Assembly (NCBI RefSeq): GCF_046105845.1
Contig: NZ_CP151004.1
DNA from: Escherichia coli
GTDB taxonomy: Bacteria > Pseudomonadota > Gammaproteobacteria > Enterobacterales > Enterobacteriaceae
DNA length: 64,000 nt
Strand: one strand, 5' to 3'
Both the position numbers and the translations under genes were made by a program. The first letter of the stretch is position 1. Each line of letters begins with the position of its first letter. Positions 22,957 through 31,464 of the stretch are shown here, piece after piece. Below the pieces are notes generated by a model. The model ran no database searches. It saw nothing but the letters and a program-made list of their open reading frames with translations, and had not been told where the DNA came from.

Positions 22957-23853
22957 ATGGACATTTTTATTTCGAAAAAGATGCGCAATTTCATTTTATT
23001 AGCGCAAACCAATAATATTGCCCGGGCGGCAGAAAAAATCCATATGACGGCTTCGCCATTTGGCAAAAGCATTGCCGCGCTGGAAGAACAAATTGGCTAT
23101 ACGCTATTTACCCGCAAAGATAATAATATCAGCCTCAATAAAGCCGGACAGGAACTGTATCAAAAACTGTTCCCGGTTTATCAACGACTTTCTGCGATTG
23201 ATAATGAAATCCATAACTCAGGGCGTCGTTCACGAGAAATTGTGATTGGCATAGATAATACTTATCCGACAATTATTTTCGATCAGTTGATTAGTCTCGG
23301 AGATAAGTATGAAGGCGTGACCGCCCAGCCAGTTGAGTTCAGCGAAAACGGCGTTATCGATAATCTTTTTGACCGTCAGTTAGATTTTATTATCTCCCCA
23401 CAGCATGTATCTGCACGAGTTCAGGAACTGGAAAACCTGACTATCAGTGAACTACCACCGCTGCGATTGGGCTTTCTCGTTTCTCGCCGTTATGAAGAGC
23501 GACAAGAGCAAGAGCTGCTTCAGGAGCTACCCTGGCTACAAATGCGCTTTCAGAACCGGGCCAACTTCGAAGCAATGATTGATGCGAATATGCGACCTTG
23601 TGGGATCAATCCAACCATTATTTATCGTCCCTACAGTTTTATGGCCAAAATCAGCGCCGTGGAGCGCGGACATTTTCTGACGGTGATCCCGCATTTTGCC
23701 TGGCGACTGGTGAATCCGGCAACGCTGAAATATTTTGATGCGCCGCACAGGCCGATGTATATGCAGGAATATCTTTATTCAATCAGAAATCATCGTTATA
23801 CCGCCACGATGCTTCAGCATATTGCTGAAGATCGTGACGGGACGAGTCATTAA
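22957..23853 (+). CDS. ygfI: LysR-family transcriptional regulator
   Basis: ORF 22942..23853; N-terminal HTH (NIARAAEKIHMTASPFGKSIAALEEQIG); start at 22957 or 22942. Confidence 0.88.
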   Translation: MDIFISKKMRNFILLAQTNNIARAAEKIHMTASPFGKSIAALEEQIGYTLFTRKDNNISLNKAGQELYQKLFPVYQRLSAIDNEIHNSGRRSREIVIGIDNTYPTIIFDQLISLGDKYEGVTAQPVEFSENGVIDNLFDRQLDFIISPQHVSARVQELENLTISELPPLRLGFLVSRRYEERQEQELLQELPWLQMRFQNRANFEAMIDANMRPCGINPTIIYRPYSFMAKISAVERGHFLTVIPHFAWRLVNPATLKYFDAPHRPMYMQEYLYSIRNHRYTATMLQHIAEDRDGTSH

Positions 23854-29280: not shown

Positions 29281-29483
29281 TATTTGCTCCGTAAAACGCA
29301 ATCAAAATGAGGGTATTTGCGCCTACGGTGAGCTTTTTACGTGGGTTTGTCGCCAGCAAAAAAAATGCATTCAGACGTCGTTTTTTGCCGCCTGAGATTT
29401 GTCTATTTTGTGATGTGATTCAAGGAATACAAAAAGAAGTGAGGATAACGCCTGATATGTGCTATCAGGCATTATTTGATGGA

Positions 29484-30377
29484 TTAATCCTGACGAAGGA
29501 CTTTGTGACCATAATCGAGCAACGCATCAGTGACTTTACGCATCATGCGGCTTTCAGGAGCAAAGCGGTGCCAGTAGAGCATCCGGCGTTGAAATAGCCC
29601 TGGCGTTAAGTCAATCAGTTCACCGCTGGCCAGTTCTTTCTCGATTTGCAGGTGCGGGATCATACAGCAGGTGGTGCCCTGGCGAGCAAGTTGCACGAAC
29701 GCTTCTGAAGAATTAACGATATGGCACGGTACGCTGCCTGGGGGCAGATCGAAGTTTTGCTGCAAAAAGGCCTGGTGCATATCGTCAAGATGGTCAAAGG
29801 CGACCACAGGTGCTTTCAATAATGCCGAACGCGTTACGCCGTTAGGGAAATATTTTTCGGCAAACGGTTTTGAGCTGACGAACAGATAGTCAAGCGCACC
29901 GAGCTTATCGACAAGACAACTCGGCAGCGCCTGATGTTGAATACTCACCGCGCCGACCACTTCGCCGCGGCGCAGACGTTCCTGAGTGCGGGTTTCATCT
30001 TCTACCTGCAAGTTGAGGCGGATAGGCGAATCAGCCAACACAGGAGCCAGCGCCGGAAGCAACCACGTCGCCAGACTGTCAGCGTTGACCGCCAGTGAAA
30101 GCAGCAGCGGAGTTGAACCGGTTTGTTCATCGCCCAGCCACTCTTCTTCCAGTAACTCCACCTGGCGCAGCAGTGCCAGCAGTTTTTGCCCTTGTTCTGT
30201 CGGGCGCGGTGGTACGGTACGCACCAACAGTGGCTGCCCGAACATATTTTCCAGTTGCTTAATGCGCTGTGAGACGGCTGATTGTGTAATGCACAGCTTT
30301 TGTGCCGCGCGCTCAAATCCTCGTTCACGTATCACCGCATCCAGTGCCTGTAATGTTCTGTAGTCCGGGCGTTTCAT
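29484..30377 (-). CDS. argP: LysR-family regulator ArgP (IciA)
   Basis: ORF 29484..30443 trimmed to [43 protein letters not shown] at 30377; 297 aa. Confidence 0.95.
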
Positions 30378-30416
30378 TGCTGTTGTCTGCTCCTGGTAAA
30401 TGCTTTTTCCTGCACT

Positions 30417-30749
30417 ATGACACAATTTTGTGTCAGGTTGCATATACCGAAGCCGTCGGCGGGTAACATTTGTATTCGTGGTAAAACGCGCAGCTTAAAA
30501 GATCAGGGATTTGCGCTAATGCATTTCGCTCAGCGAGTTCGCGCCCTGGTTGTGTTGAATGGCGTGGCGCTATTGCCTCAATTTGCCTGTAAACAGGGGC
30601 TTGCGAACGGTGAACTGGTGCGCCTGTTTGCACCGTGGAGCGGCATACCCAGATTGTTGTATGCCTTATTTGCGGGGCGAAAGGGGATGCCTGCCATTGC
30701 GCGATATTTTATGGATGAGTTAACCACGCGGCTTGCCAACGGGGTCTGA
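30417..30749 (+). pseudogene. yqfE: Remnant of a LysR-family regulator (C-terminal substrate-binding fragment; yqfE-like)
   Basis: Translation ...VVLNGVALLPQFACKQGLANGELVRLFAPWSGIPRLLYALFAGRKGMPAIARYFMDEL... resembles only the C-terminal end of LysR effector domains; no HTH, no credible start. Confidence 0.6.
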
Positions 30750-30804
30750 ATCGCTTTTTTTGTATATAATGCGTGTGAAATTTCATACCACAGGCGAAAC
30801 GATC

Positions 30805-31464
30805 ATGACGCAGGATGAATTGAAAAAAGCAGTAGGATGGGCGGCACTTCAGTATGTTCAGCCCGGCACCATTGTTGGTGTAGGTACAGGTTCCACCGCC
30901 GCACACTTTATTGACGCGCTCGGCACGATGAAAGGCCAGATTGAAGGGGCCGTTTCCAGTTCAGATGCTTCCACTGAAAAACTGAAAAGCCTCGGCATTC
31001 ACGTTTTTGATCTCAACGAAGTCGACAGCCTTGGCATCTACGTTGATGGCGCAGATGAAATCAACGGCCACATGCAAATGATCAAAGGCGGCGGCGCGGC
31101 GCTGACCCGTGAAAAAATCATTGCTTCGGTTGCGGAAAAATTTATCTGTATTGCCGACGCCTCCAAGCAGGTTGATATTCTGGGCAAATTCCCGCTGCCA
31201 GTAGAAGTTATCCCGATGGCACGTAGTGCAGTGGCGCGCCAGCTGGTGAAACTGGGCGGTCGTCCGGAATACCGCCAGGGCGTGGTGACCGATAACGGCA
31301 ACGTGATCCTCGACGTCCACGGCATGGAAATCCTTGACCCGATAGCGATGGAAAACGCCATAAATGCGATTCCTGGCGTGGTGACTGTTGGCTTGTTTGC
31401 TAACCGTGGCGCGGACGTTGCGCTGATTGGCACACCTGACGGTGTCAAAACCATTGTGAAATGA
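30805..31464 (+). CDS. rpiA: Ribose-5-phosphate isomerase A
   Basis: ORF 30733..31464 trimmed to [31 protein letters not shown] at 30805; 219 aa. Confidence 0.96.

Follow-up and report, generated by a model that had tools for sequence, protein, structure and literature searches.

What is the open reading frame between argP and rpiA of Escherichia coli that resembles only the very end of a LysR-type transcriptional regulator, and how did it come to lie there? In the DNA analyzed here, a 64,000-nt stretch of an E. coli chromosome (NZ_CP151004.1) referred to as the window, the neighborhood consists of scpA, argP, a 427-nt spacer, rpiA, and serA. The spacer contains a 110-aa ORF with an ATG start (30417..30749, plus strand), which an earlier note had described as a yqfE-like gene remnant encoding the last ~80 residues of a LysR effector-binding domain without a helix-turn-helix (HTH) motif, adjacent to argP and possibly left by an ancient duplication or deletion. 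The feature is yqfE (b2915) itself, already known and catalogued as a pseudogene in K-12, and it is very probably the non-functional 3' stump of a LysR-type regulator gene that was left by the deletion of a gene cassette.

Composition of the argP–rpiA spacer

The spacer is flanked on the left by argP (29484..30377, minus strand; 297 aa plus stop codon), which is indeed an intact LysR-family gene as the earlier note had it, and on the right by rpiA (30805..31464, plus strand; 219 aa plus stop codon). A match to the region 30300-30850 was present in 5,425 of 5,426 complete E. coli genomes. The frame of scpA, the methylmalonyl-CoA mutase gene next to argP, is open in the window. In the annotations of six related strains (ST131, MS1170, APEC O1, O104:H4, RM14516, and HS-02), scpA is a truncated or frameshifted gene or has an internal stop.

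In the MG1655 record, yqfE is flagged as a pseudogene at 3059381-3059611, between rpiA and argP. It has the same position and the same 231-nt ORF as the feature in the window, and the two spacers are 98.4% identical, but the window allele encodes the replacement P268L (LysR numbering) and lacks an upstream TAA, which results in the 110-aa ORF. This longer frame is open only in the allele type of the window, whereas K-12 and most other strains have the TAA at window positions 30483-30485, and the ORF usually annotated is therefore the 76-aa form (30519..30749, plus strand; 231 nt), of which the 110-aa ORF is a chance 5' extension. The identical K-12 protein bears the UniProt-derived name "Uncharacterized protein YqfE", and the NCBI pipeline PGAP calls the 76-aa CDS a "LysR substrate-binding domain-containing", "type 2 periplasmic-binding domain-containing", or "hypothetical" protein.

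Residues 49-106 of the 110-aa ORF match positions 151-208 of the 209-position Pfam profile LysR_substrate (PF03466; E=2e-5, 24.5 bits, just below the gathering score of 28), and the 76-aa stump matches positions 237-297 of PRK14997 in NCBIfam. When the intact 298-aa ortholog was used as a tblastn query, its residues 236-298 aligned at 30558-30746 with 98.4% identity (E=1e-36). In comparison with the intact protein WP_097742346.1 of strain RM14516, 62 of the 63 residues are the same, P268L being the sole replacement, and in alignments with intact E. coli alleles the remnant has 97-98% identity. The end of a LysR effector domain had thus been correctly recognized from the sequence, with a length of 63 residues rather than ~80. 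The tblastn search for further upstream LysR pieces, which the earlier note had proposed, found no match to residues 1-235 in any frame of the argP–rpiA spacer; Pfam found no HTH_1 domain (PF00126) in the ORF, and an HTH in another frame was looked for and was absent as well. Elsewhere in the 64-kb window, tblastn gave only family-level matches, in argP and in another LysR gene near 22990. The stump has neither the winged HTH nor the complete ~200-aa effector-binding domain of a functional LysR protein; what it has is in-frame C-terminal homology at a syntenic position, as in a pseudogene fragment of a LysR gene. The intact regulator WP_097742346.1, in contrast, combines HTH_1 with a full LysR_substrate domain (profile positions 2-208, 116 bits) and a divergent operon, all of which the window lacks.

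The spacer could be dissected into segments of different origin. The LysR remnant proper (30558..30749, plus strand) comprises codons 236-298 and the stop codon of the 298-aa gene, and it begins at the deletion junction 30556|30557, where base 30557 is the third base of LysR codon 235. On the other side of this junction lies the 3' fragment of a gene for an FMN-dependent NADH-azoreductase paralog (30478..30556, minus strand; residues 182-207 of 209), which is antisense to the yqfE ORF and supplies the first 13 codons of the 76-aa form. It is adjoined by a 44-nt filler (30434..30477, without assigned strand) that occurs only in the deleted allele, in place of genes for a ferric reductase and a DUF1471 protein, and then by 56 nt of the argP upstream region (30378..30433, minus strand; 5' UTR and promoter side), which hardly vary and occur in intact and deleted alleles alike. 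Accordingly, codons 1-47 of the 110-aa ORF are of non-LysR type, being made of argP upstream DNA, filler, and antisense azoreductase DNA. Judged by these alignments, the yqfE ORF is a chimera in which only the last 63 codons are of LysR origin.

Several further features of the spacer concern its neighbors. An 18-bp perfect palindrome (TGACACAATTTTGTGTCA) is located at 30418-30435, 41-58 nt upstream of the argP start codon, with most of it in the argP-proximal region 30378-30433. Its right arm is completed by sequence specific to the short allele, and the cassette-bearing (island) alleles read TGACACAATTTTGCGTTG; the palindrome could be a candidate regulatory site that was made or altered by the deletion. 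A Pho box reported upstream of iciA (argP) would fall in the spacer. PhoB control of argP was set aside, as a genome-wide study records no PhoB binding or regulation there (PMC10294691). A published computational screen (InvenireSRNA, cited in PMC8144298) gave the yqfE–argP spacer 30378-30518 a score of 0.64 as a predicted CsrA-binding transcript. No RNA family of Rfam matched the region, and a scan for consensus promoters and terminators, which is insensitive for promoters, found nothing there.

The intact cassette and the deleted allele

Strain RM14516 was first seen through spacer matches in which only the 3' 249 nt were matched, and under this match lay a full-length LysR gene. Its locus (L004) contains four genes between argP and rpiA, which were assigned by Pfam domains: a 441-aa ferric-reductase-like protein with Ferric_reduct, FAD-binding, and NAD-binding domains (L004 2903-4228), an 86-aa DUF1471/BhsA-like protein, a 209-aa FMN-dependent NADH-azoreductase, and, divergent from these three, the 298-aa LysR regulator, whose gene ends 55 nt before rpiA, as it also does in E. 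whittamii and others. The 441-aa protein belongs to the bacterial NOX family, with 8qt6/8qq7 (E=4e-26) and NOX5 (6sz5) as the best solved relatives. The name "EcNOX" occurs in a 2017 mBio paper (PMC5676040) and may denote the cassette gene. Many carriers have a defective ferric reductase gene: it is interrupted by IS1 in the MS6198 class, frameshifted in ETEC6335, and affected by deletions in E. whittamii and MOD1-EC7003.

Alignment of the window to this locus by blastn localized the losses. Window positions 29400-30433 correspond to L004 1855-2888, 30500-30556 to L004 4598-4654 (91%), and 30557-31000 to L004 6001-6444, with the LysR frame kept; azoreductase residues 182-207 were found by tblastn at window 30555-30478 (77%, E=2e-8). 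Relative to RM14516, the short allele thus lacks L004 4655-6000 (1,346 nt) and approximately L004 2889-4575 (~1.7 kb). The 44-nt filler at the second gap has no counterpart in island alleles or outgroups, and a 66-nt query (30434-30499) produced local alignments to island alleles, outgroups, and IS1 that were no better than those of shuffled controls. A Citrobacter azoreductase gave a borderline score of 14 against a null maximum of 13 and was rejected as a filler source because the match was taken as chance. No E. coli genome contained a second copy of the filler segment. Microhomology was absent at the azoreductase|LysR junction, the nearest repeat being TTGG at a distance of 3 nt.

We propose that the ancestral argP–rpiA interval would have been a four-gene redox cassette, in which an operon for the FMN azoreductase, the DUF1471/BhsA-like protein, and the NOX-like ferric reductase was accompanied by the divergent LysR gene ending 55 nt before rpiA. 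Illegitimate recombination would then have removed two stretches in the lineage leading to ~95% of present E. coli. The 1,346-nt stretch would have comprised the first 542 nt of the azoreductase gene and LysR codons 1-235, along with the 100-nt divergent promoter region between them. The ~1.7-kb stretch, which held the genes for the ferric reductase and the DUF1471 protein as well as the two final codons and the stop of the azoreductase gene, would have been replaced by the 44-nt filler; the order and number of these deletion events are what we infer. The lost regulator presumably controlled the divergent redox operon. The stump that stayed behind has neither an HTH nor a full effector domain and would lack a promoter of its own, so that it should be unable to act as a regulator; it is presumably not expressed, and it is decaying.

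Distribution of the cassette and direction of change

At least 80% of the island is carried by 233 of the 5,426 complete E. coli genomes, and the part from DUF1471 to the azoreductase by 248. A 74-nt query across the filler (30430-30503) gave one match each in 5,176 of the 5,426 genomes, which complements the ~248 island carriers. The intact cassette is accordingly found at the argP–rpiA site in ~4.5% of complete E. coli genomes, and the deleted allele in ~95%. Outside the species, the cassette or decayed versions of it occupy the same site in E. whittamii, Escherichia sp. E1V33, Escherichia sp. MOD1-EC7003, and Pseudocitrobacter, and Citrobacter portucalensis has a two-gene form with azoreductase and LysR. 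The outgroups have the intact LysR gene as a gene in its own right, with an azoreductase operon divergent to it. In Salmonella enterica (L010-L012, 3594-6915), the same four genes, with a LysR protein of 70% identity, are located away from argP, between a gene for a GerE-type regulator and the genes for a DUF554 protein and ornithine decarboxylase. As this is a different locus, the cassette has moved as a unit. In C. portucalensis (L013, 5214-5300), the end of the azoreductase gene is homologous to the 3' end of the RM14516 ferric reductase gene and the sequence downstream of it, which implies that an independent deletion of the ferric reductase and DUF1471 genes gave the azoreductase a new C-terminus there.

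The rarity of the cassette in E. coli and its different locus in Salmonella, which shows that it moved at least once, might suggest that the short arrangement is ancestral and that the four genes were inserted later in a minority of strains. We consider this highly improbable. The short allele holds 3' pieces from two cassette genes, in frame and with order and orientation as in the cassette, for which only a deletion provides an explanation; an empty site would be free of such pieces, and none of this kind was seen between argP and rpiA of the relatives examined. Moreover, the same site is occupied in three other Escherichia species, in Pseudocitrobacter, and in Citrobacter. The adjoining position of two LysR-family genes could also be taken to mean that the remnant goes back to an old tandem duplication of argP, but this idea, which has the shared family and neighborhood in its favor, is almost certainly wrong. 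In a single BLASTP comparison, the intact regulator was only 28% identical to ArgP over 36 aa (E=0.003), the two genes are divergent instead of tandem, and the outgroup gene is part of a separate cassette that in Salmonella lies away from argP. In NCBIfam, PRK14997, YafC, and AaeR were the top matches of the intact regulator (171-125 bits), and the ArgP models ranked only about 21st with 55 bits, so that the regulator is not closer to ArgP than to other LysR subfamilies. By similarity, then, the lost regulator is no duplicate of argP, and ArgP (IciA), which has the superfamily and the neighboring position in common with the remnant, is not its source.

The PRK14997/YafC/AaeR group provides the best family-level matches of the intact ortholog, of which the stump is only a fragment. 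These scores are far under the equivalog cut-offs (171 versus 380 bits), and the intact gene is therefore a family member without a name. The best solved relatives of the intact regulator are 3szp/3t1b, deposited as "Transcriptional regulator, LysR family", and 3hhg; the first two are presumably Vibrio cholerae AphB.

Of the two origins suggested in the earlier note, it is thus the deletion that agrees with the intact gene in other strains and sister species, while the duplication finds no basis in the similarity to ArgP. The attribute "ancient" is appropriate on the species scale only, as the remnant has remained nearly identical to the intact alleles and the species still segregates for the intact form. 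On this scale, the azoreductase fragment of the short allele has several states in common with E. whittamii and E1V33 that are not present in the E. coli island alleles, which makes the deleted lineage old when measured against the diversity of the species. What yqfE marks is the loss of the redox cassette with its NOX-like ferric reductase, BhsA-like protein, azoreductase, and LysR regulator, and the presence/absence polymorphism of this cassette in E. coli could be used to ask what the cassette does.

Decay and constraint of the stump

To see whether the stump is functional, we aligned 17 short alleles, and six alleles were compared for argP and rpiA. A 45-nt deletion, flanked by a GCCT repeat, removes 15 codons in 7 of the 17 alleles. 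It is present in ~30% of genomes, as estimated from evenly spaced rows (12 of 40 and 11 of 40); a junction-specific query for this allele was dropped, as two half-matches were joined and the count was confounded. In the O157/O104-type allele, the ATG at 30519 is changed to TTG and a TAG is created at 30531, with a new in-frame ATG at 30551-30553 in the O157-type allele. Strain E09 has deletions of 89 and 24 nt. In protein-database variants of yqfE, 2, 4, or 7 more residues are deleted, the frame is shifted, or the stop codon is lost. Some alleles also carry replacements at residues that are invariant in the sampled intact alleles. With the frequent 45-nt deletion, the loss of the start codon together with the new stop in the O157 type, and the larger deletions, the ORF is not conserved species-wide, and PGAP calls no yqfE CDS in O157, O104, AST19, FDAARGOS_944, and E09, five of the strains sampled. 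A 150-aa "longer" homolog (P0043) was discarded, as it came from a frameshift-ridden assembly.

The substitutions give a more differentiated picture. In the 63 codons of the LysR tail, 7 nonsynonymous and 18 synonymous events were counted among the 17 alleles, compared with 0 nonsynonymous versus 60 synonymous variable codons in argP and rpiA (six alleles), and the RpiA protein accession is identical in all sampled strains. The mutation density of the LysR tail (26 per 189 nt; 0.14/site) equals that of the filler and azoreductase fragment (18 per 123 nt; 0.15/site). About a quarter of the density of the tail was observed in the argP-proximal 56 nt, which have 2 variable sites among the 17 alleles. 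A six-allele comparison had suggested that the LysR tail evolves more slowly than the filler, but this difference disappeared with 17 alleles, in which the total densities are equal. Counts of protein variants per cluster were uninformative as a measure of constraint, as the RpiA, ArgP, and ZapA clusters span several genera. All 7 nonsynonymous events are in codons 236-270, and codons 271-298 have 7 synonymous and no nonsynonymous events. The pattern is therefore not fully neutral, and there is a real excess of synonymous changes. Of the 18 synonymous states, however, 11 are also found in intact alleles or outgroups, which points to inherited or recombined variation rather than to selection on the stump, and a weak constraint on the last 28 codons is unlikely.

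According to a rival view, yqfE would encode a small protein with a function of its own: the C-terminal part of a LysR effector domain would stand alone, be kept by selection and, for example, modulate another regulator. In support of this, most genomes retain a callable ORF of 61-76 aa, which PGAP annotates as a CDS, the remnants of K-12 and ST131 differ by 5 synonymous and 0 nonsynonymous changes, codons 271-298 are free of replacements in all 17 alleles, and the O157-type allele, which lost the upstream ATG, gained an in-frame one. Nevertheless, we regard a functional product as very unlikely: nearly a third of the genomes have lost the 15 codons, other alleles have in-frame or out-of-frame deletions, a lost stop codon, or replacements at invariant residues, the first 13 codons are antisense azoreductase DNA, only positions 151-208 of the 209-position domain profile are represented, five sampled strains have no PGAP CDS, the MG1655 curators treat the gene as a pseudogene, and most of the synonymous variation is common to intact alleles. 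In addition, the deletions that gave the viable reduced-genome strain DGF-298 include yqfE (PMC10652928), which is thus dispensable in that strain. We therefore keep to the reading of yqfE as a non-functional stump. It is of little biological weight because it is a recognized pseudogene, but many RefSeq E. coli genomes carry this chimeric relic as a real CDS, and its origin is now explicit.

One genome does not fit a single ancient deletion. HS-02 (GCF_044647545.1, NZ_CP172818) has the azoreductase|LysR junction exactly as in the short alleles (L009 3869-3930), but in an island-type background: of the MS6198-type island it keeps the ferric reductase gene with its IS1 disruption, DUF1471, and the 3' end of the azoreductase gene, its identity to that island is 99.5% on the left and 100% on the right, and the island-type SNPs extend as far as the junction. 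No other of the 5,426 genomes is like this, and a single ancient deletion does not explain it; a recurrent deletion, gene conversion, or an assembly artefact could be the cause. That selection still acts on the last ~28 codons (30663-30746), on a short peptide or another element read in this frame, or, as a separate matter, that the HS-02 junction reflects a recurrent deletion at a preferred site, appears quite improbable to us.

Downstream of the stump, the rpiA leader and putative core promoter region (30750..30804, plus strand), assigned by the TATAAT at 30765-30770, shows no differences across the alleles, with the exception of two that have an ERIC-like insertion. This repeat of ~120 nt (core GCTCACCCCAGTCACTTACTTCTGTAAGCTCCTGGGGATTCAC) is located in or beside the TATAAT -10 box of rpiA in E. 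coli E09 and in R32_14_1F, and also in Escherichia sp. MOD1-EC7003, and TATAAT occurs again after the insert.
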